NCBI GenBank assembly: GCA_014075295.1
Contig: CP046180.1
Location: forward strand, 554,040-618,039
Source: Candidatus Mycalebacterium zealandia
Lineage (GTDB): Bacteria; Desulfobacterota_D; UBA1144; Nemesobacterales; Mycalebacteriaceae
Direction of reading: 5' to 3'
Length of the DNA: 64,000 nucleotides
Shown here piece after piece: positions 5,137 through 61,087 of the stretch. The translations under genes and the position numbers were made by a program. Every line of letters begins with the position of its first letter. Position 1 is the stretch's first letter. A model generated the notes under the pieces. That model did not search any database and was not told where the DNA came from. It worked only from the letters and a program-made list of their open reading frames with translations.

Positions 5137-6717
5137 TTACTTCTCAAAAAACACGCTCATTGCGTCGGCCAGACCTTCGGCGGTGTGCTTTTTCGCGACA
5201 ACGGACGGTTTGAAGCCCGCATCTTCAACAGTTTTTGCCGTGATGGGACCGATACAGCCGATTGAGGATTTACTCAAAATCTCTTTCGCGTTTTTGAAAA
5301 TGGCGAGGAAGTTTGTCGCCGATGACGAACTTGTAAAAACAACCATGTCCACCGCGCCGTCAAACATTTCGCGCCCGACCGCTTTAATTTCGGCGGGTTC
5401 ATGTTTCGGAATTCGCGTGCGGTAGCATGGCGCGGTTTGAACCTTCGCGCCCATTTTCTTCAAGCCCGCCGGAAGCGCGTCTCTGGCTTTTTCAGCTCTT
5501 GGAATAAAAAAGGTTTTTCCGCGAATTCCGCGCTTTTTCATCTCCGCGAGCACTCCCTCGGCGGTGTATTTTTTCGGAATTATGTCCGCTTCTATTCCAA
5601 AGCCGTTCAGGGCTTCGGCGGTTTTGCTTCCTATTGCCACGGTTTGAATTCCCGCGAGCGCCCTTGAATCAAGCGCCTTCTTTTTCATTCTCTCAAAAAA
5701 CCTTTCAACACCGTTTACGCTTGTGAACGCGAGAAAATCGCACGAGGAAAGATTTTTAATAATCCGGTCGGCATTGTTCCATGAACGCGGCGGAACAATC
5801 TCAATGCAGGGAAACGAGATGACTTCCGCGCCGCGCTGTTGCAAAAGTTTTACAAAATCCGCCGATTGACCCGCCGGACGGGTAACGACAATTTTTTTGC
5901 CGAAAAGCGGCTTTGTTTCAAACCAGTTCAATTTTTTCCTCATTCCAATCGCACCTCCCGCTATCACGACCGCCGGAGCGAAATCAGCCCCTTCGCCGCG
6001 GATTTTCGCGCTTATGTTTTCAAGCGTGCCGACAACGGTTTTCTGTTTTCCCGTTGTTCCGCGCGAGGTAACCATAACGGGGGTTTTTCGCGGTTTTTTA
6101 TTTTGTATGAGTTTTTTTGTTATCTCCTCAATGTTGTTCAGAGACATAAGGAAAACAACGGTTTCCATTCCGGCGAGATTTTTCCAGTTCAGGCGCGATT
6201 TTTTGTCGGGCTTCTCATGTCCCGTTACGACAGCGAAAGACGAATTGAAGTCTCTGTGGGTGAGCGGCACGCCTGAGTAAGCCGGAACGGAATAAACTGA
6301 ACTCACACCCGGAATAACCTCAATCACAATGCCGGCGGACAACAGTGCTTCGGTTTCTTCGCCGCCTCTTCCGAACACAAAAGGGTCTCCGCCTTTGAGG
6401 CGCACAACCGTTTTGCCACATTGCGCCTTGTTTATCATCAAGCGGTTAATTTCTTTTTGTTCAAGAGTTTTCATCCCCTTTTTTTTGCCCGCGAAAATCA
6501 TCTCCGCGCCGTGCGGGGCGAATTCCAGCAAAGAATTGTTTGCCAGCGCGTCGTAAATGACCACATCGGCGCACGCAAGAGTTTCCATTCCCTTGACGGT
6601 TATGAGACCCGGGTCTCCGGGTCCCGCGCCGACCAGATAAACCGCCGGTCTGTTTTTTATCGCTTTTCCTTTTTTCATCAGAACTATTAGCAATAACAAC
6701 GGGTGCGATGTTGTCAA
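5137..6717 (-). CDS. cobA: bifunctional uroporphyrinogen-III C-methyltransferase / uroporphyrinogen-III synthase (CobA-HemD fusion)
   Basis: N-terminal VYLVGAGPGDPGLITVKG...GGDPFVFGRGGEE (SUMT signature) and a C-terminal 250-aa HemD-like domain. 526 aa. Confidence 0.85.
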   Translation of the reverse strand: MTTSHPLLLLIVLMKKGKAIKNRPAVYLVGAGPGDPGLITVKGMETLACADVVIYDALANNSLLEFAPHGAEMIFAGKKKGMKTLEQKEINRLMINKAQCGKTVVRLKGGDPFVFGRGGEETEALLSAGIVIEVIPGVSSVYSVPAYSGVPLTHRDFNSSFAVVTGHEKPDKKSRLNWKNLAGMETVVFLMSLNNIEEITKKLIQNKKPRKTPVMVTSRGTTGKQKTVVGTLENISAKIRGEGADFAPAVVIAGGAIGMRKKLNWFETKPLFGKKIVVTRPAGQSADFVKLLQQRGAEVISFPCIEIVPPRSWNNADRIIKNLSSCDFLAFTSVNGVERFFERMKKKALDSRALAGIQTVAIGSKTAEALNGFGIEADIIPKKYTAEGVLAEMKKRGIRGKTFFIPRAEKARDALPAGLKKMGAKVQTAPCYRTRIPKHEPAEIKAVGREMFDGAVDMVVFTSSSSATNFLAIFKNAKEILSKSSIGCIGPITAKTVEDAGFKPSVVAKKHTAEGLADAMSVFFEK

Positions 6718-24558: not shown

Positions 24559-26142
24559 TTAGTCCAAACTCCGGTAGCGTCCTTTTTGAATGATGAAGAC
24601 CGTGAGGCAGGGCACCGCCACGCCAATTACCGTGGCGGTTATCAGAAGTATTCCCAGTTCCGAATAGTCCGCGGATGTGATGATTTTCTGCGCTTCGTCT
24701 CTTACCTCGCGCGTTATGATAAAAATTTCATTCAAATACTTTGAGCCGAGGCTCGCCGCTGAAAGCGAGAGATTTGAAAAAGACGCGAACACGGCGAAAA
24801 AAGTCGCTTTGAGATGGTCGGGCGCGTTTTTCGCTATCCACGCGAGAAGCGGAATCATTGCCACCTGTCCCAGAGGGGATTCAAGTGCCGTGTTCACAAT
24901 CGCTATGAATTTTGCATCCACAACGCCGTCCGTCAGCGCCGCCGTCCATTCGTGAAGCCCGTAGAAAAGCCCAATGTCGGGAAGTGACAGAACGCCCCAC
25001 ACCAGGGACAGAAAAACAATAAGCCATGGTATTTTAACCCTGCTCATAAGAGGCAGAAAAACAAATATGCCCGCGAGCGTGAGAGTGGAGCCTATGAGCG
25101 ACAGATATGAGAAAAACTGCTCGTCAAAGCCAATTTCGTCTATCAGAAACCAGCCGTTTCCCGGACCTATGGTCGGCACGGCGCGGAAGAAAAAAATGAT
25201 TATCGCCGTTCCTATAAGAGTGGCGTGTTTATCTTCGGGCAGTTCGGTAAGCAGTTTTCGCATAAGGAAAATCACTATCGCCATGGAGCCCGTGAACACT
25301 ATTTCCTCCGAATAGGGAACTTTTGAGAGCCCCGTTCCGATGCTGAAAATGACAAAGGCGAGGCTCCCCCAGAGAATCCACCAGTTTGGTGCGGTTGGAG
25401 TCTGAAGCTTCGGCACGCCGGGTATATGTCCGGTTTTTTTCAGGATTTCAGCGAGAACAACGCCCATGATGGACACAAGCGGAATGGCGAGAGCCATAAG
25501 GTATATTTCACTGTAAACATGCGCTTTTTCCGGTCGGGAAAGTTCCGATGTGTCATTAAAGGCGACTATGTTGATAATTGAAACCACAACCGTGCCGCCG
25601 ATAACGGCAAATCTGCCGAGTGTTTGCATTGTTGTGTGCGCGGATTTGAGTTCCTCTTCGCTGATTTTTTCACCCCGGGAATCCACGGTGGGAACGGCTT
25701 CAACCGTCATCGCGTCCGCAACAACGTCCTGAAGCACATAACCGACGGGGCTGATAATCACGCTTGCTACGAACCAGTTGGAGATGGGCCAGATTTGCCG
25801 CATATATTCAGTGTGGGCTATCAGCCCGTAAACAATAAGCAGCCCCACCGCGATAAGTGCCGCGCCTATAAACACAAGGACGGATTTCCAGCGCCAGATC
25901 AGGTCAACAAGATGCCCAACTGGCATTTTGAGCGCCCACGGGAGCCCCGCCCAGAAGCCGAGACCGGCGAGAAAAGCGGCGGACAAGTCCAGATAGTCTT
26001 TGACAAAAAAAGTGGCGACAATTCCCGTAAGCCCCGAAATTCCCGCCGCCAAATACACCATAAGCGGCGGTATGTAGCTCAGTCGAAGCTGTTTGAAAAT
26101 CCCAACAAAATCTTCGGCGAAAAACTTCCTCAGCGTGTTCAT
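24559..26142 (-). CDS. large polytopic membrane protein, possibly a BT1 (folate-biopterin)-like MFS transporter
   Basis: 527 aa, at least 12 predicted TM segments. N-terminal FFVKDYLDLSAAFLAGLGFWAGLPWALKMPVGHLVDLIWRWKS resembles the BT1 family signature. Confidence 0.35.
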   Translation of the reverse strand: MNTLRKFFAEDFVGIFKQLRLSYIPPLMVYLAAGISGLTGIVATFFVKDYLDLSAAFLAGLGFWAGLPWALKMPVGHLVDLIWRWKSVLVFIGAALIAVGLLIVYGLIAHTEYMRQIWPISNWFVASVIISPVGYVLQDVVADAMTVEAVPTVDSRGEKISEEELKSAHTTMQTLGRFAVIGGTVVVSIINIVAFNDTSELSRPEKAHVYSEIYLMALAIPLVSIMGVVLAEILKKTGHIPGVPKLQTPTAPNWWILWGSLAFVIFSIGTGLSKVPYSEEIVFTGSMAIVIFLMRKLLTELPEDKHATLIGTAIIIFFFRAVPTIGPGNGWFLIDEIGFDEQFFSYLSLIGSTLTLAGIFVFLPLMSRVKIPWLIVFLSLVWGVLSLPDIGLFYGLHEWTAALTDGVVDAKFIAIVNTALESPLGQVAMIPLLAWIAKNAPDHLKATFFAVFASFSNLSLSAASLGSKYLNEIFIITREVRDEAQKIITSADYSELGILLITATVIGVAVPCLTVFIIQKGRYRSLD

Positions 26143-26250
26143 TGGTTGCCGTTTTGGACGGAATGGATAGTGAATGTTATGAGGTTGAGTGGGGGTTGTA
26201 AAGTGAAGGACACAAGCCGGACTTCTTACTCGGAAAAAAAGGCGTGCCGA

Positions 26251-26487
26251 GTTGTGAATTGAGGGCAGGTTTCAGTCAGTTACAATCTGCGCGCGCTATC
26301 TTCAATCTGTCTTTGAGTTGTGAATTAAGGGCAGGTTTCAGTCAGTTACAATACGGACAAATTATTGTAAGACAGGGCAGGGGGTGTTGTGAATTAAGGG
26401 CAGGTTTCAGTCAGTTACAATTTACAGTTCGCACTTCCTACCAAGGCGCGAGTTGTGAATTAAGGGCAGGTTTCAGTCAGTTACAAT
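26251..26487 (+). CRISPR. CRISPR array, 4 repeats / 3 spacers, 36-bp repeat GTTGTGAATTAAGGGCAGGTTTCAGTCAGTTACAAT
   Basis: Repeats at 26251-26286 (variant with G at position 11), 26317-26352, 26386-26421 and 26452-26487. Spacers are 30, 33 and 30 nt. Sits directly 3' of cas2. The ORF-track entry 26244..26489 is a translation artefact of the array. Confidence 0.9.
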
Positions 26488-26537
26488 AGCTCGTCCTCAA
26501 CTGTCCTGCTGGCAAGGGGTTATGGCTTTTCCACAAA

Positions 26538-26867
26538 TCAAAAAAGAGTGATTTGCTGAGGAGCCCTTTCCAGTTTCTTTCGTTTTTTCCCATAAAAAAT
26601 TTGCATTCGTCCAAATTGCTTGTCTGTAATTGTAATAATCCGCACTTCGCCTTCGGGAGGCAAAGATTCTCTTACTCGCCCTGAATGGACATAGGCGTTT
26701 TCTTCGCTTGCGCAGTGTCTGGCATATACGGAGAACTGCATCATGATAAATCCGTCTTGCATAATATGCTTTCTGAACTTCGTATAATCTTTCCGTGCTC
26801 TCTTTGTGTCTGTGGGAAGGTCAAACATAACTATTATCCACACGGTTCTGTATCCTCCGAAAGCCAT
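26538..26867 (-). CDS. cas2: CRISPR-associated endoribonuclease Cas2 (type II)
   Basis: 109 aa with N-terminal IVMFDLPTDTKRARKDYTKFRKHIMQDGFIMMQFSVYARH, typical of type II Cas2. Confidence 0.9.
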   Translation of the reverse strand: MAFGGYRTVWIIVMFDLPTDTKRARKDYTKFRKHIMQDGFIMMQFSVYARHCASEENAYVHSGRVRESLPPEGEVRIITITDKQFGRMQIFYGKKRKKLERAPQQITLF

Positions 26868-26870
26868 TTT

Positions 26871-27779
26871 TTACATTTCAATCCTCATTTGTTTGTTCTC
26901 AATCAGTTCCGGTATTTTCAAAGAGTCAATTCCTTCTGAAAACGCTTTCTTCAGGCTCGCGGCCATGTATTGATTTGCCACCATCATTGGCAATTTCTTT
27001 TCTTCAAGTAAAACATCTTCAGACAGAAGGGAAAGCAATGATAACTTTATCTTTTTATCAATTTCTGTTTTTCCATTTTCGTTCAATTCATAAACTCGTC
27101 TGTCAACAAGAGGTCTCAACGGTTCCATAATGTCATCGGCGAGACACATAGGGTTGTATTGATTGTGATGATGAATTCCGAGCGCAGGATGAAGCCCTGT
27201 TCCGCACAAAGCGCGAGCAACAGACGCCCTGATTAGGCTGTATCCGTAGTTTAGAAGGGAATTCACTCCACTTTCTTTGTAATCTCTGCCGAATTCTTTC
27301 CCGAACAGTATTGACCAGTATATTTTTGCGGCTTGCGCTTCAATATTTTTCGGATCACCACTTTGAACTCTCTTCTTGAGACTTGGAAGTGTTCCCGGAT
27401 CTTTCTTGAAAAAGAGCAACGTTTGAATCTGCGCCTCGGTTTTGGCTATTATAATTTTCTGCCAGAGCCGTTTTTTCAGCGGTTTTTTAACTCCCGTCTG
27501 TATGTTGAGAACCTTGCTGTGCATTGAGTTTCCTGAGAGAGGAAGCAAGGCGGAAACGGGTAGATGCCTTTGGTCGCAAAACACAATTATGCAGTTATTT
27601 TTCTGACATTCCGCTATAAGACTTTGAGAGATTGAGATTGCAGGGTTGGCAAGTATGAGAATACCCATGTCTTCCACGGGAATACTGCTGTCATTTTCAC
27701 TCTCTTTTCTGATAATCATCTGACAGTCTTTCAGATGAAGGTATGCGGGGTTGCTGATTTCAATGATTCTTTTGATCAT
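26871..27779 (-). CDS. cas1: CRISPR-associated integrase Cas1 (type II)
   Basis: 302 aa, type II Cas1-like throughout. Its start overlaps the cas9 stop by 4 nt. Confidence 0.9.
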   Translation of the reverse strand: MIKRIIEISNPAYLHLKDCQMIIRKESENDSSIPVEDMGILILANPAISISQSLIAECQKNNCIIVFCDQRHLPVSALLPLSGNSMHSKVLNIQTGVKKPLKKRLWQKIIIAKTEAQIQTLLFFKKDPGTLPSLKKRVQSGDPKNIEAQAAKIYWSILFGKEFGRDYKESGVNSLLNYGYSLIRASVARALCGTGLHPALGIHHHNQYNPMCLADDIMEPLRPLVDRRVYELNENGKTEIDKKIKLSLLSLLSEDVLLEEKKLPMMVANQYMAASLKKAFSEGIDSLKIPELIENKQMRIEM

Positions 27780-30700
27780 TGTGTTTTAGTGTTGTTTTTA
27801 GCGAGACCAAGAGCATTTATGGATTCTTGTTTTACTTTGTATTCCGCCATTAGTGTTGAAGGAGCCATTGCCAATTCAAGTTTTTTCTTTTCATCGGAGG
27901 ATAGTTTTTTAAAATCTTGATCTGAGGTTCCGTCTGTGTGTTTTCGTAGTATCAATTTTATACACTGATTTTTCTGTCCTCTGTCTATTTTCCGCACTCT
28001 ATAGAATATTTTCTCACCGTTTTTCTGAACACTTACGGTGTCATTTATACATAGACTCATAACAAATTCCCGGTTTTCCCCGTGTTCAGTTTTTACAATC
28101 GGTTCTTTCCTAATTCTTGTTCTCTCTGCGGCTTTCATAGTTGTTACAACAATACTCTCATATTTTCCGGTTTCTCCATTCTTGATAATTTCCACATGAT
28201 GATTGTTGCCATATTGCAAAACCTTTGAGATTTTTCCTGCTTTATTCTTCTTCGTATAGTAAAAACTCTCATTAAAGGTTTTAGACATCCAAACTTTAAC
28301 GCGTCTGACAGCATCTCCCGTTTCCGGGTGTTTCAACGGTTGTTCTTTCAAAGCTTTTTTTGCCTTGCTCAAATCATTTCCTTGTTCCAAAACATATCTT
28401 TCAAATGCTTCTCTAACAGTTGGAGATACTATCTCTTTGTTCTTCAACACAGCGTCTGATATATCAGTCAAGTTTTTACGAACAACAATTCCTTTTTTGC
28501 CGTTTTCTTCTCTTACTCCATAAATCGTGTCTTCGTGAAATGCTCCCGTTATTTTTCTGTTTGTTGCATGAGAGACAATCATTCCATCTACAGCTTCCTG
28601 CAGTCTGTTTCTGAGATTGTCAAGAATTCTAGGGGGTTCCAATCCATGTTCGGGGTCTATGGAATCACCGCTAGCCTCTGATGCCACTTTGACTATTTTT
28701 TGATAAAGACTGCGGTTCGTAAGCGCAATCACGGTTGCGTCAATCGCGTGGTGTCTGTGGTCGGCGCGGTTTTTCTCTCCCGTTTCGCTGAGAATTTTAT
28801 TTAATCCCCATTGGTGACGGAGCCAACTTGTTATTCCGCCTTTTGTAAAAGTTACATCGCAACCGAGAGTTCTCATATACTTGCCGGTTTCTTTTGCTAT
28901 GTAGCGTGCGTCAGTCAGCTGGCTGTTAACAAAATCTTCAATTCCTTCCATTTTTTTTGCCAGAATTCTTCCGCATTTTGCTTCGGGATAGTTGTTGCGT
29001 TTTGCCATGCTCTCAATGGTTTTCCATTGTTCTGTTTCGCCAAATGCTTCCCACGGTGTTTTGTTGTGCTTTTCCCTGTTCTCTTTTGCAAAACATATGA
29101 CCTTGTTCATATAAGAGTTATCAAGACTTCTGCTATACGGAAGAATGTGATCTATTTCAACATCGGAAGACCAGAGGTCCGTCAAACTGATAGACTTTCC
29201 GCTGTATGAACATTTACACTCACTTTCTTTCCAGAGTCTGTATTTCAGTTTGTCCTGATGGCTTATATATTTCTTTAACCGCAAGTCGGGTTCCCTATCT
29301 CTGATGCTATTGTATTTTTCTTCCGCTTCCTCATTGGCTTTCCTATTCTTTTTATGTATTTGTTCCGCTCTTTTGTATTTTTCCGTGTTCATCTCTAAAT
29401 CACGAGACATTTCTATGCGTATAGCGGTTGGTTTCCCGTACTCTTTGATAATTGCATTCACAACACGCCGGACTTCATAAAGAGCTTTTGTAACAATGGG
29501 ATTCGGTATAAAAGGCAGTTCGCCAAGAGTTTCTTTGTCTCCGGTCTTCGGTTTTGTAATGTCTTTATAGCCTGCTACTTGAACCGCTCCCGTTTCATCT
29601 TCCTTGTCGCTTTCCCTGCTATAAACCCTGCCTTCTTTAAGGTGTGGCAGGATTTTATTTATTGCTTTCAGTGAAAGATTTCCATGTCCCTCTTCCAATT
29701 CCAGAACAGCAAGTTTGACAGCTTTTTCCAAATCAAATTTCCAGTGATCTTGCAGGCGTTTTTTCAGTTTTATTTTGGACTCATAGGAAATTAAGTCTTC
29801 AACAAGTTGTTTTTGTTTGCTGTCGTCGAGTGAGTCGTCCCAATCATCTCCGATAATCTCTCTTATTCCGCAAGCTGTTGTGTTTCCCTTAATACCCTTT
29901 CTGCTTTTTCCTTCAACTTTTTCCAGATTGAATTTTGTTCGTTTGTTCAGGCTGAACAGGGTTTTTATTTTTGCCCATGTCAGATTTTTGTTTTTCTCAA
30001 GCGTTTCGGCAATTAGTTGTTTCTGCTCAGGCGAGGGTTTTACATCTCTTTCTCCCGTTTCGGTGTCATCCCAACTTAAATTGTTAATGTCCTGCCAGTA
30101 ACGAAATTGCTGAAATTCAAGACGTTCCATTTTCACTCTTTTCTTTTTCGGTTCAAGAGAACAATTACCCACGGTGTTTTTATTCCAAATTATAGAGCGT
30201 TGGTTAAAGATGATTTTCTCAATCGCGTTTTTGACATTTTCCGTATAAATCTTTGGATTAAGTGCGAATTGCTTACGGAAGATTTGTTCAAACTCTTCCT
30301 GATACATTTTTCTGTCGGTTCTGCGGTCATGATATTCTCCTCTGTTGCGTTTGCGGTTCAGGGTTGAGAGGTGTTCGCCAAGGGTTCTTTTTCCGGCTTC
30401 TTTTATATCATCTCGGAGTTCTTGAATGTCTTTTTTGAATTTGTTTTCATCGTTGTCAGTTTTTGCAGATTTATCTTCAATTTCTAAAATTTCCCGCACC
30501 TCCGGGTCATCACGCAAATTTCCAAATCCCGTTTTGCGGTTGCTTAAAAATCCTCGCCGTGTTCCCAAGTGAAGTATCGCGCGTCCAAACTTATGTGGAG
30601 TCAATTCTTCGTCCAACGCTTTTGCCCTTAAATCATAAGGGTTGCCCAGTTTGTTAAGTTCCGTTTCAGGATTGGGTTCATCTTTCAGAGAATTCGGCAG

Positions 30701-30964
30701 AAATTCTTTGCTTATCAGATAGTTTCTCAGACGCATTTTACGTCTATGTCGCCTTTCAATTACACGCCTTAAAAGCCGTTTCTCTCGACGGTTTTGATTT
30801 TTTGGGGTGGGTGTTTTGTCTTCAACGGAACGGATAAAAATCCTGCTTCCACAACTTACGAGTCCTTTCGGTTTGCCGTTCTTTTCCTCTACAACACTCC
30901 AGCCAATGGAGTTTGTTCCCATATCAAGACCAATTGTGTATTCAGACAGTTTTGCTTTTTTCAT
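27776..30964 (-). CDS. cas9: Cas9 endonuclease, type II-C
   Basis: 1062 aa. RuvC-I motif YTIGLDMGTNSIGWSVV (Asp14). HNH motif VEIDHILPYSRSLDNSYMNKVICFAKENREKHNKTP (His about residue 606). Arg-rich bridge helix KNQNRREKRLLRRVIERRHRRKMRLR. No csn2 or cas4 in the locus, hence II-C. Confidence 0.9.
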   Translation of the reverse strand: MKKAKLSEYTIGLDMGTNSIGWSVVEEKNGKPKGLVSCGSRIFIRSVEDKTPTPKNQNRREKRLLRRVIERRHRRKMRLRNYLISKEFLPNSLKDEPNPETELNKLGNPYDLRAKALDEELTPHKFGRAILHLGTRRGFLSNRKTGFGNLRDDPEVREILEIEDKSAKTDNDENKFKKDIQELRDDIKEAGKRTLGEHLSTLNRKRNRGEYHDRRTDRKMYQEEFEQIFRKQFALNPKIYTENVKNAIEKIIFNQRSIIWNKNTVGNCSLEPKKKRVKMERLEFQQFRYWQDINNLSWDDTETGERDVKPSPEQKQLIAETLEKNKNLTWAKIKTLFSLNKRTKFNLEKVEGKSRKGIKGNTTACGIREIIGDDWDDSLDDSKQKQLVEDLISYESKIKLKKRLQDHWKFDLEKAVKLAVLELEEGHGNLSLKAINKILPHLKEGRVYSRESDKEDETGAVQVAGYKDITKPKTGDKETLGELPFIPNPIVTKALYEVRRVVNAIIKEYGKPTAIRIEMSRDLEMNTEKYKRAEQIHKKNRKANEEAEEKYNSIRDREPDLRLKKYISHQDKLKYRLWKESECKCSYSGKSISLTDLWSSDVEIDHILPYSRSLDNSYMNKVICFAKENREKHNKTPWEAFGETEQWKTIESMAKRNNYPEAKCGRILAKKMEGIEDFVNSQLTDARYIAKETGKYMRTLGCDVTFTKGGITSWLRHQWGLNKILSETGEKNRADHRHHAIDATVIALTNRSLYQKIVKVASEASGDSIDPEHGLEPPRILDNLRNRLQEAVDGMIVSHATNRKITGAFHEDTIYGVREENGKKGIVVRKNLTDISDAVLKNKEIVSPTVREAFERYVLEQGNDLSKAKKALKEQPLKHPETGDAVRRVKVWMSKTFNESFYYTKKNKAGKISKVLQYGNNHHVEIIKNGETGKYESIVVTTMKAAERTRIRKEPIVKTEHGENREFVMSLCINDTVSVQKNGEKIFYRVRKIDRGQKNQCIKLILRKHTDGTSDQDFKKLSSDEKKKLELAMAPSTLMAEYKVKQESINALGLAKNNTKTQ

Positions 30965-30984
30965 TTGCCACTCTCACCAATTGT

Positions 30985-31012
30985 TTGACAAATTGCTTTG
31001 TCCCGATACGAT
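30985..31012 (+). promoter_or_regulatory. candidate sigma70 promoter for the tracrRNA (TTGACA -N16- TACGAT)
   Basis: Perfect -35 TTGACA at 30985-30990 and TACGAT at 31007-31012, placing +1 about 31019-31021 at the first base of the anti-repeat. Overlaps the 5' region upstream of cas9, in divergent orientation. Confidence 0.4.
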
Positions 31013-31020
31013 ACATAACT

Positions 31021-31136
31021 ATTGTTACTGACTGAAACCTGTCCAAACATTTTTTTTCAATTCATAACAAGAGACTAATGTTTCGCAGGCAACCCCTTCG
31101 GGGGACCTTGGCGCCTCCCAGTGGGGCGCTTTTTTA
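31021..31136 (+). ncRNA. tracrRNA: predicted tracrRNA
   Basis: 31021-31044 ATTGTTACTGACTGAAACCTGTCC matches the reverse complement of repeat positions 13-36 at 22/24. 31059-31068 AATTCATAAC complements repeat positions 1-10 with one G-U wobble. Between them is a 14-nt U-rich bulge. Downstream are a CCCC-TTCG-GGGG hairpin and a GC-rich hairpin GCGCCUC-CCAGU-GGGGCGC followed by TTTTTT at 31130-31135. Confidence 0.6.
31111..31135 (+). terminator. intrinsic terminator of the tracrRNA
   Basis: 7-bp GC-rich stem (GCGCCUC / GGGGCGC with one G-U) and a 5-nt loop, then a U6 tract. Confidence 0.6.
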
Positions 31137-31186
31137 TGCCTTTCGCAATATAGTTATACTCAATACCTGTAAGGAGAACTTCCGTA

Positions 31187-32629
31187 ATGAGTGTTAAAAA
31201 AATCCCTCTACAATTCAAAACAGACATTCCACCTGCGGGCGAGACGGAAGTTGTAAATCCTTTTGACGGCTCCGTTATTGCCACGCTTGAGACGGCGGGG
31301 GAAAAGCATATCAATGAGTTGCTTGAGACCGCGAAAGAACTTTATGACGACCGCGCCGGATGGCTTACGGTTCAAAAAAGGGTGGAAATCCTTGAGCGGA
31401 CGGCTTCCATTATCTCGGAGCGCGAAGACGATTTAATAAAACAGGCGGCGGGCGAGGGCGGAAAACCGTATAACGATTCAAAGGTGGAGATTTACAGGGC
31501 GTCCGACAGCGCGAAAATTGCAGCCGAAACAATCCGCACAGAGGCGGGAAATGTTATTCCGATGGGTGGCGACCTTTACAGCGCGAACAGGGCGGCTTTC
31601 ACACAGAAAGAGCCGATAGGCGTTGTTGTGGCCGTTAGCGCGTTCAACCATCCGCTCAATCTCATCGTTCATCAGGTCGGCGCGGCGGTTGCCGCCGGTT
31701 GTCCCGTTATTGTCAAACCCGCCGTGGAAACTCCGCTCTCATGCGTTTCCTTCAAAGACATTCTGGTTGAAGCGGGCCTGCCTCCTGAGTGGTGTCAGGT
31801 CGTCATCACGGATTCAAACGACACCGCGCAGGCGCTTGTAACCGATGAACGGACGGCGTTTTTCAGTTTTATCGGCAGTTCGCGCGTGGGCTGGAGTCTG
31901 CGCTCAAAACTCGCTCCCGGAACCCGTTGCGCGCTTGAACACGGCGGGGTGGCGCCCGCGCTTGTTTATCCCGACGCTGATATGGAGCGTGCGGCGGTTC
32001 TGCTTGCCAAAGGCGGTTTTTATCATGCGGGGCAGGTTTGTGTTTCCACCCAGCGGATATATGTGCAAAAGAAGGAAGGACGGCGGTTTGTTTCGCTTCT
32101 TCAAAAAGAGGCGCAAAGTCTCAAAGTGGGAGACCCCGCTCTTAAATCCACGCAAGTGGGGCCACTCATTCGTCCGTCCGAGGTTGAGCGCGTTCATAAG
32201 TGGGTTACACAGGCCGTTAAAGAGGGAGCGGAGCTTGTTTGCGGCGGAAAACCCGTGCTTGACACATGCTATGAGCCGACCGTTCTTCTCAACCCTTCAG
32301 ATAAATCCCTTGTCAGCACGGAGGAAATTTTCGGTCCGGTCGTCTGTATTTATGAGGTTGACGATATGGAAGACGCCGTAGCGCGCGCGAACGGGCTTGA
32401 TGTGGCGTTTCAGTCTTCGGTGTTCACAAGCGACATTGACACCGCGCTCGCGACCGCGAAAAAACTGAATGCTTCGGGTGTTATGGTGAATGATCATACG
32501 GCGTTCCGCATAGACGGAATGCCGTTTGCCGGGCTTAAAAAATCCGGGCTTGGAACAGGCGGTATTCCGCACACGATAAAAGATATGAGTGTGGAGAAAA
32601 TGGTGGTTTTGCGCTCGGACGGAATTTAA
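31187..32629 (+). CDS. NAD(P)-dependent aldehyde dehydrogenase family protein
   Basis: 480 aa. FNHPLNLIVHQVGAAVAAGCPVIVKPA, EHGGVAP and active-site GQVCVSTQR. Confidence 0.8.
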   Translation: MSVKKIPLQFKTDIPPAGETEVVNPFDGSVIATLETAGEKHINELLETAKELYDDRAGWLTVQKRVEILERTASIISEREDDLIKQAAGEGGKPYNDSKVEIYRASDSAKIAAETIRTEAGNVIPMGGDLYSANRAAFTQKEPIGVVVAVSAFNHPLNLIVHQVGAAVAAGCPVIVKPAVETPLSCVSFKDILVEAGLPPEWCQVVITDSNDTAQALVTDERTAFFSFIGSSRVGWSLRSKLAPGTRCALEHGGVAPALVYPDADMERAAVLLAKGGFYHAGQVCVSTQRIYVQKKEGRRFVSLLQKEAQSLKVGDPALKSTQVGPLIRPSEVERVHKWVTQAVKEGAELVCGGKPVLDTCYEPTVLLNPSDKSLVSTEEIFGPVVCIYEVDDMEDAVARANGLDVAFQSSVFTSDIDTALATAKKLNASGVMVNDHTAFRIDGMPFAGLKKSGLGTGGIPHTIKDMSVEKMVVLRSDGI

Positions 32630-60757: not shown

Positions 60758-61087
60758 ATGTCCGAAGATGATGTAATTGAACTTAGTGATTCCGCTTTTG
60801 AGAGCGAGGTACTCCAAAGCGACATTCCGGTGCTTGTTGATTTCTGGGCTCCCTGGTGCGGACCGTGTAAGGCAATCGCGCCGACCGTGAGCCAAATCTC
60901 GCGTGATTTTGCGGGCAAAATCAAAGTGGGCAAAATCAACGTGGACGAAAATCAGCAAACTTCCATTCAGTTTGGAATACGCAGCATTCCCACATTGCTA
61001 ATTTTCAAAGATGGTAAAATTGTTGACCAGATTATAGGAGCTGTTTCGCAGACGGACCTTGAAAATTCCGTCAACAAAGCGCTTTAA
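60758..61087 (+). CDS. trxA: thioredoxin
   Basis: VLVDFWAPWCGPCKAIAP active site. 109 aa. Confidence 0.85.
   Translation: MSEDDVIELSDSAFESEVLQSDIPVLVDFWAPWCGPCKAIAPTVSQISRDFAGKIKVGKINVDENQQTSIQFGIRSIPTLLIFKDGKIVDQIIGAVSQTDLENSVNKAL

Follow-up and report, generated by a model that had tools for sequence, protein, structure and literature searches.

The CRISPR-Cas9 locus of Candidatus Mycalebacterium zealandia (Dadabacteria), recovered as a MAG, raises the question of what is encoded in the short interval divergent from cas9, and what is to be made of the long A/U-rich loop that interrupts its complementarity to the CRISPR repeat. In the 64,000-nucleotide stretch of DNA analyzed here (the window, with positions counted from its first letter), the interval 31021-31135 is the tracrRNA gene of a type II-C CRISPR-Cas9 system. 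The kind of gene is ordinary; the sole unusual trait of this tracrRNA is an extra A/U-rich loop of ~12-14 bases, the length of which varies among its closest relatives. Taken jointly, a II-C tracrRNA, pairing with the repeat in two blocks, a bulge expanded in the Dadabacteria branch, and a loop that is tolerated rather than required make up a reading that we regard as very likely. The RNA joins an already known tracrRNA family and reveals no new mechanism.

The cas genes and the array of the locus are the following:

27776-30964, minus strand: cas9, encoding 1062 aa (TIGR01865 at 640 bits), divergent from the tracrRNA gene
26871-27779, minus strand: cas1 (TIGR03639, cas1_NMENI, at 286 bits)
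26538-26867, minus strand: cas2 (TIGR01573, cas2, at 75 bits)
26251-26487, plus strand (crRNA sense): CRISPR array of four 36-nt repeats and three spacers (30, 33, and 30 nt)

The encoded Cas9 is 100% identical to an NCBI-named Cas9 of the Ca. Mycalebacterium zealandia MAG, and the solved structures closest to it by sequence are those of II-C enzymes of ~1082-1095 aa. Neither the map of open reading frames nor the family scan revealed csn2, cas4, or any other fourth cas gene at the locus. Thus, the presence of cas9, cas1, and cas2 without csn2 or cas4 assigns the system to subtype II-C. The ATG of cas9 lies 57 bp from the start of the tracrRNA, and no credible open reading frame, small ones included, overlaps the tracrRNA interval. 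The CRISPR locus is flanked at 24559-26142 and 31187-32629 by genes for a BT1-family transporter and an aldehyde dehydrogenase. Both neighbors are common to the relatives L005 and L006, L009 shares the transporter, and more distant relatives share neither; these shared flanking genes suggest vertical inheritance within part of the clade. Elsewhere in the window, Tandem Repeats Finder reports short tandem repeats at 6162-6328 and 60913-60954, with periods of 20-22 and 15 nt.

On the strand opposite to cas9, the region upstream of it is made up of the following elements, some of them enclosed in others:

30985-31012, plus strand: candidate tracrRNA promoter, with a -35 TTGACA (30985-30990), a 16-nt spacer, and a -10 TACGAT (31007-31012)
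31021-31135, plus strand: predicted tracrRNA of ~115 nt (covariance model R1)
31021-31044, plus strand: 5' part of the anti-repeat (upper stem), ATTGTTACTGACTGAAACCTGTCC, pairing with repeat positions 13-36
31045-31058, plus strand: tracr-side bulge, AAACAUUUUUUUUC, unpaired in the crRNA:tracrRNA duplex (RNAcofold)
31059-31068, plus strand: 3' part of the anti-repeat (lower stem), AATTCATAAC, pairing with repeat positions 1-10
31069-31070, plus strand: AA junction, the usual II-C pattern
31071-31084, plus strand: nexus hairpin of 5 bp, GAGAC-UAAU-GUUUC (RNAalifold consensus)
31087-31108, plus strand: second hairpin, an AGG...CCU closing stem around CCCC-UUCG-GGGG (31093-31104) in the minimum free energy (MFE) fold
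31110-31135, plus strand: intrinsic terminator, GGCGCCUC-CCAGU-GGGGCGCU followed by U6, with its stem at 31110-31130

The repeat, GTTGTGAATTAAGGGCAGGTTTCAGTCAGTTACAAT, occurs in four copies at 26251-26487, where none is expected by chance. Its positions 13-36 match 31021-31044 through 22 Watson-Crick pairs, one G-U pair (repeat G15), and one U-U mismatch (repeat U31), and its positions 1-10 match 31059-31068 through nine Watson-Crick pairs and one G-U (G4), the two anti-repeat segments being separated by AAACATTTTTTTTC (31045-31058). Repeat G1 pairs with C31068, i.e., the 5' end of the repeat meets the 3' end of the anti-repeat; this arrangement, followed by a nexus hairpin within 1-3 nt, is the described pattern (PMC6546382). 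RNAcofold gives -42.6 kcal/mol for the repeat with the anti-repeat, close to the II-C median duplex energy of -39.4 kcal/mol (PMC6546382), and a geometry in which a lower stem of 10 bp and an upper stem of 24 positions are separated by two crRNA bases and 14 tracr bases left unpaired; the loop shrinks to 12 nt if the helix continues past an A-C mismatch to a pair of A12 with U31057. Sequence and cofolding accordingly agree on the split anti-repeat with lower stem, bulge, and upper stem that the earlier note had read from the letters. That note had also considered a better anti-repeat elsewhere; both strands of the 64-kb window hold this single anti-repeat, the next best ungapped match scoring 10 against 18.

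The promoter scan scores TTGACA-16-TACGAT at 10 of 12 matches to a consensus that is sigma-70-type and unverified in Dadabacteria, with a predicted transcription start at ~31019-31021; the same scan yields 10 promoter-like sites against 8.3 in shuffled sequence. A -35 TTGACA or TTGACG stands at an equal distance from the anti-repeat in the relatives L005-L009 and L011. An AA junction with a nexus starting in G is the usual II-C pattern (PMC6546382). The stem of the terminator has eight pairs, six of them GC, in the terminator scan, and its GCCUC...GGGGC core is conserved and covaries in the relatives. The tracrRNA call of the earlier note, including its strand, promoter, terminator, and divergence from cas9, is borne out by the scans, by conservation, and by covariation together, as is its CCCC-UUCG-GGGG hairpin with a terminator downstream, on which the MFE fold, the terminator scan, and the covarying stem concur. 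A search of Rfam over 25500-32000, with E values up to 10, gave chance-level matches only, none of them relevant in the tracrRNA interval. The Rfam tracrRNA model is probably built from Streptococcus-type sequences; hence, the missing match is no argument against a tracrRNA function. A separate observation concerns the conserved segment GCAGG that follows the nexus (31085-31089), which reproduces repeat positions 15-19 exactly. Over 31071-31089, the nexus region matches the 5' half of the repeat at 10 of 16 positions in the Cme2 system (see below) and in L022, and at 8 of 16 in the window. This likeness could be a trace of the origin of the tracrRNA or a self-pairing decoy.

Relatives of the locus place these elements in an evolutionary frame. 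A scan of a genome collection with the Cas9 sequence recovered distant relatives alone (33-43% identity), which are uninformative on the bulge, and we found no papers on Dadabacteria and Cas9. Metagenome assemblies, however, contain Cas9 relatives that are 55-72% identical, and ten such loci (L005-L014) were taken for comparison. In each of them, a gap of ~210-335 bp upstream of cas9 holds a tracr element on the strand opposite to cas9, with a constant order: a -35 (mostly TTGACA), the 5' part of the anti-repeat, an A/U-rich insert, and a 3' part ending in CATAAC, continued by AA, a hairpin of the form GARRC-NAAU-GYUUC, GCAGG, a second hairpin, and a GCCUC...GGGGC terminator. The element is found upstream of cas9 in L005-L014 and L034 (Cas9 55-69% identical), and the loci L001, L022, L028, and L040, which are more distant, have it too. 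A pattern scan of metagenomes with CATAACAAGA-N9-11-TTCGYAGG gave 39 matches, among which only L022, L028, L030/L040, and L034 are real tracrRNAs, the rest being due to chance. A covariance model (R1), built from 14 relatives including Cme2 with the window left out, recovers 31021-31135 on the plus strand at full length with 99.2 bits (E = 1.8e-18). Its other matches in the window are confined to the array repeats and are weak (23-27 bits); they arise because the minus strand of the anti-repeat resembles the repeat. This shows that the tracrRNA family of the window is well defined despite having no Rfam match.

Covariation supports both the body of the RNA and its duplex with the repeat. In an RNAalifold analysis of 15 tracrRNAs, 8 of the 16 pairs show compensatory changes, and these are distributed over the nexus, hairpin 2, and the terminator. 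Nexus pair 57-65 is AU in seven sequences, GC in five, and GU in three, and at pair 59-64, 11 sequences have CG and one has GC, such that the nexus stem appears as GAAAC/GUUUC, GAAGC/GCUUC, and GAAAG/CUUUC. In hairpin 2 (alignment columns 79-90), three pairs have both sides changed in eight, four, and five sequences. For the intermolecular duplex, the repeat was joined through GAAA to the first 24 and the last 12 anti-repeat bases, omitting the insert, at the 11 loci with known repeats. Across these loci, 91% of the repeat:anti-repeat cells are paired, as against 26-40% after shifting the 3' partner by 1-3 columns; both sides have changed in 22 of the 36 pairs, and none of 500 shuffles reaches the observed pairing values. 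Lower-stem pairs 7 and 9-12 are compensatory across the loci, and the upper stem behaves likewise. Thus, with compensatory changes on both sides of the insertion, both halves of the anti-repeat are real partners of the repeat.

One member of the family has been biochemically exercised. Gasiunas et al. 2020 (Nat Commun 11:5512, supplementary file 4) list the Cme2 Cas9 (clade IX, PAM NAGNGC, contig Ga0079224_100072790) with its repeat, tracrRNA, and sgRNA and an in vitro PAM determination. Our locus L040 is this same compost metagenome contig, and its repeat, tracrRNA, and sgRNA sequences match that listing. Like the window system, Cme2 has a repeat starting with GUUGUG, a lower-stem anti-repeat ending in CAUAAC with the G4-U wobble, an AA junction, a 5-bp nexus (GAAGG-UGAAA-CCUUC in Cme2) followed by GCAGG, a second hairpin and GCCUC...GGGGC terminator, a tracrRNA gene upstream of and divergent from cas9, and a bulge between repeat positions 12 and 13. 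The two differ in that their Cas9 proteins are only ~40% identical over ~1000 residues, and in that the bulge site carries 1-2 extra tracr bases in Cme2 as opposed to 12-14 in the window. Since the homologous Cme2 sgRNA works, the strand and the architecture of the family are supported by a working guide RNA.

The direction of the system follows from these comparisons. The G4-U wobble is invariant at 11 of 11 loci, and G-U pairs outnumber A-C oppositions overall (22 versus 9 positions). Taken with the complementarity to the tracrRNA and the validated orientation of Cme2, the invariant wobble sets the array on the plus strand, and the array is in this sense convergent with the cas operon. An altogether different reading would deny that the region is an RNA gene and see in it either a decayed orphan repeat or a source of functional minus-strand transcripts, namely a crRNA from that strand together with a leader of cas9. 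Formally, the complementarity of any anti-repeat exists on both strands, and the minus strand here does resemble the repeat. However, it is only on the plus strand that the conserved and covarying promoter, nexus, hairpin 2, and terminator can be understood, the opposite strand would turn the invariant G4-U into an A-C mismatch, the plus-type orientation is the one in which the homologous Cme2 RNA works, and there is no credible open reading frame over the interval; we therefore hold this reading to be extremely improbable.

For the plus-strand tracrRNA, the system may be pictured as follows. The sigma-70-type promoter at 30985-31012 would start an RNA of ~115 nt near 31020, which would end at the terminator at 31110-31135. 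The crRNAs would be read off the plus strand toward cas2, probably starting from the -10-like TACAAT in which each repeat ends, in the manner of Neisseria meningitidis and Campylobacter jejuni, with a predicted start ~6-7 nt into the spacer. Repeat positions 1-10 (or 12) would then form with 31059-31068 the lower stem next to the guide, and positions 13-36 with 31021-31044 the upper stem, both of these helices being the ones shown by covariation. The AA junction, the 5-bp nexus hairpin, the second hairpin, and the terminator would follow the duplex, and Cas9 would bind the resulting scaffold, given that a related tracrRNA works as an sgRNA with the Cme2 Cas9.

The array offers several observations of its own. 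It is very short, with three spacers versus 20-56 in several relatives; in L005 (9366-13105) and L008 (6083-9820), cas9-cas1-cas2 and an intact-looking tracrRNA are accompanied by no array in the 3.7 kb fetched past cas2. None of the three spacers, searched as the 26-nt repeat-proximal 3' part, has an exact match in viral contigs, and they therefore yield no information on the PAM or the targets. The cas-distal repeat copy (26251-26286) has G at position 11, where the other three copies (26317-26487) have A; G11 would pair with tracr C31058, whereas A11 gives an A-C mismatch beside the bulge. As G11 is also present in the repeats of relatives, the "degenerate" terminal repeat looks ancestral, the mutation having spread through the cas-proximal copies. 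The repeats of the window and of L001, L004, L006-L014, L022, and L040 all end at their 3' side in a TAnnnT hexamer, in the variants TACAAT, TATAAT, TAAAAT, TAAATT, TAAACT, TATACT, and TACACT across the family. The hexamer is kept in L010, L012, and L014 though its pairing with the 5' end of the tracrRNA is lost there. This pattern of conservation appears to fit repeat-embedded promoters, which are documented (PMC5965381), better than it fits a pairing constraint. In the first repeat copy, the promoter scan finds TTGAGG-16-TACAAT, with no TG extension.

Such a layout has counterparts among well-studied systems. The II-C loci of N. meningitidis and C. jejuni share with the window the cas9-cas1-cas2 operon and a 36-nt repeat of the form GUUGU...ACAAU. 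Their tracrRNA sequences and post-nexus hairpins are nonetheless unrelated to those of the window, and N. meningitidis has a small central bulge and a tracrRNA gene placed between cas9 and cas1, where the window has it upstream of cas9. Streptococcus pyogenes (II-A) resembles the window in having its tracrRNA upstream of cas9 on the opposite strand, but this tracrRNA shows no sequence similarity to that of the window, its tracr-side bulge is ~4 nt, and its array is co-directional with cas9. [quoted passage not shown] A -10-like hexamer at the 3' end of the repeat, suggestive of repeat-embedded promoters, is likewise common to these two species and the window (PMC5965381), which differs from them in lacking the extended -10 TG (AGTTACAAT).

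What remains is the loop. Bulge size was taken as the unpaired bases in RNAcofold or as the bases omitted between the two anti-repeat blocks. By this measure, the window has 14 or 12 extra tracr bases, L006 and L007 have seven each, L009 has 12, L010 six, L011 15, L012 eight, and L014 14, as opposed to none in the outgroup L022 and 1-2 in the outgroup Cme2. The site of the insert is constant, between repeat positions 12 and 13. The description of the bulge as unusually large in the earlier note is hence a fair one: the 14 bases of the window are near the top of the range of 6-15 in the Dadabacteria clade, against 0-2 in L022 and Cme2. Given this difference between clade and outgroups, the bulge is a lineage-specific expansion of the normal bulge of the family. 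The A/U-rich expansion arose in the Dadabacteria branch, with its length drifting between 6 and 15 nt. Length has changed through the U-run (2-8 U) and, in L014, also through a tandem duplication of UUUGCU; in the closest relatives, the start of the insert, AAAC or AAGC followed by the U-run, is fairly conserved. In other Cas9 orthologs, the protein buries the lower stem, and the upper stem, which the largest bulge sets apart, is dispensable (PMC6546382). Because of this division, the loop of the window, which by analogy would lie beyond the buried lower stem, is probably tolerated rather than required.

Against a merely tolerated loop stands the idea that the insert does additional work, either by closing the fold of the free tracrRNA, or by contributing a -35 and an UP-like A-tract to a cas9 promoter on the other strand, or both; we consider it unlikely that even one of these holds. 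At the RNA level, CCUGY and the bulge (31038-31052) would pair with the 3' half of the nexus and GCAGG (31077-31089), leaving the lower-stem anti-repeat in a loop, and binding of the crRNA and Cas9 would switch the RNA to the nexus fold. If so, the center of the anti-repeat would be masked by a repeat-like segment (the 3' half of the nexus plus GCAGG) until the crRNA and Cas9 open the fold. Such a long-range helix does appear in the MFE folds of most relatives (L005, L007-L012, L014, and L034), the segments form duplexes of -11 to -19 kcal/mol where the insertion is present versus -6 to -7 in the outgroups L022, L028, and L001, with z-scores of -3 to -7 against shuffles, and the bulge alone pairs with the nexus at p = 0.003-0.06 in the subclade of the window, reaching 12 bp in L014. 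However, the MFE fold of the window itself retains the nexus hairpin and does not form the helix, and the nexus hairpin has compensatory support of its own. The AAACAUU motif is shared by descent and counts as one observation, the bulge-only signal is absent in L008, L011, and L012 and modest elsewhere, comparison of cognate with non-cognate duplexes meets nexus sequences that are nearly identical among close relatives, and A/U-rich segments easily pair by chance. On balance, a closed fold of this type is quite improbable. A shorter isoform had also been suggested by the earlier note, with the eight consecutive U at 31050-31057 acting as an early terminator to give a tracrRNA of ~37 nt without the lower-stem anti-repeat. 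This suggestion finds no support: the best fold upstream of the U-run (31021-31049) reaches only -2.8 kcal/mol and provides no stable hairpin, the terminator scan is silent at that position, and the run varies from 2 to 8 nt in relatives and is not conserved as a signal, all of which makes such an isoform highly improbable. Binding of Hfq to the A/U-rich loop, considered by analogy with Neisseria, was set aside, one published source containing nothing that ties Hfq to the tracrRNA.

At the DNA level, the cas9-sense strand of the insert would hold part of a -35 (TGGACA, 31045-31040) and, upstream of it, an UP-element-like A-tract (31057-31050), in a cas9 promoter overlapping that of the tracrRNA; transcription of the tracrRNA and of cas9 would then compete through overlapping promoters placed face to face. 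Only ~20 bp separate the ATG of cas9 from the tracr -35, and a cas9 promoter must therefore either overlap the tracrRNA gene or lie beyond it. On the minus strand, the promoter scan places TGGACA-16-AATAGT at 31045-31018, with the A8 tract just upstream; the A8-TG, followed by 2 nt and the hexamer, would correspond to the proximal UP subsite of Escherichia coli, AAAAAARNR. A TKGRCA at the junction of bulge and anti-repeat, following an A-rich tract, recurs in L005-L009 and L011-L014, and the hexamer of L006 is a perfect TTGACA. Yet, the anti-repeat already fixes most letters of the hexamer, the candidate -10 hexamers (AATAGT, AATACT, TATCTT, and TATGCT) are weak and show no sequence conservation, and outgroups without the insertion show the same tight arrangement of tracrRNA and cas9. 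Promoter-like sites are, moreover, about as frequent in shuffled sequence, as given above, and the applicability of sigma-70 rules to Dadabacteria is unverified. A contribution of the insert to a cas9 promoter is thus, like the closed RNA fold, a quite improbable one, and a tolerated expansion of the bulge remains the reading that we prefer.

With the tracrRNA defined in this manner, the uncharacterized Dadabacteria group of II-C Cas9 proteins, of roughly 1030-1090 aa, gains a well-supported guide-RNA design that covers the orientation of the repeat, the boundaries of the tracrRNA, the lower stem, and the position of a dispensable-looking loop. For the engineering of sgRNAs, the bulge site may accept inserted aptamers. 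More generally, natural members of this tracrRNA family show that their canonical bulge can be extended from ~2 nt to ~15 nt.
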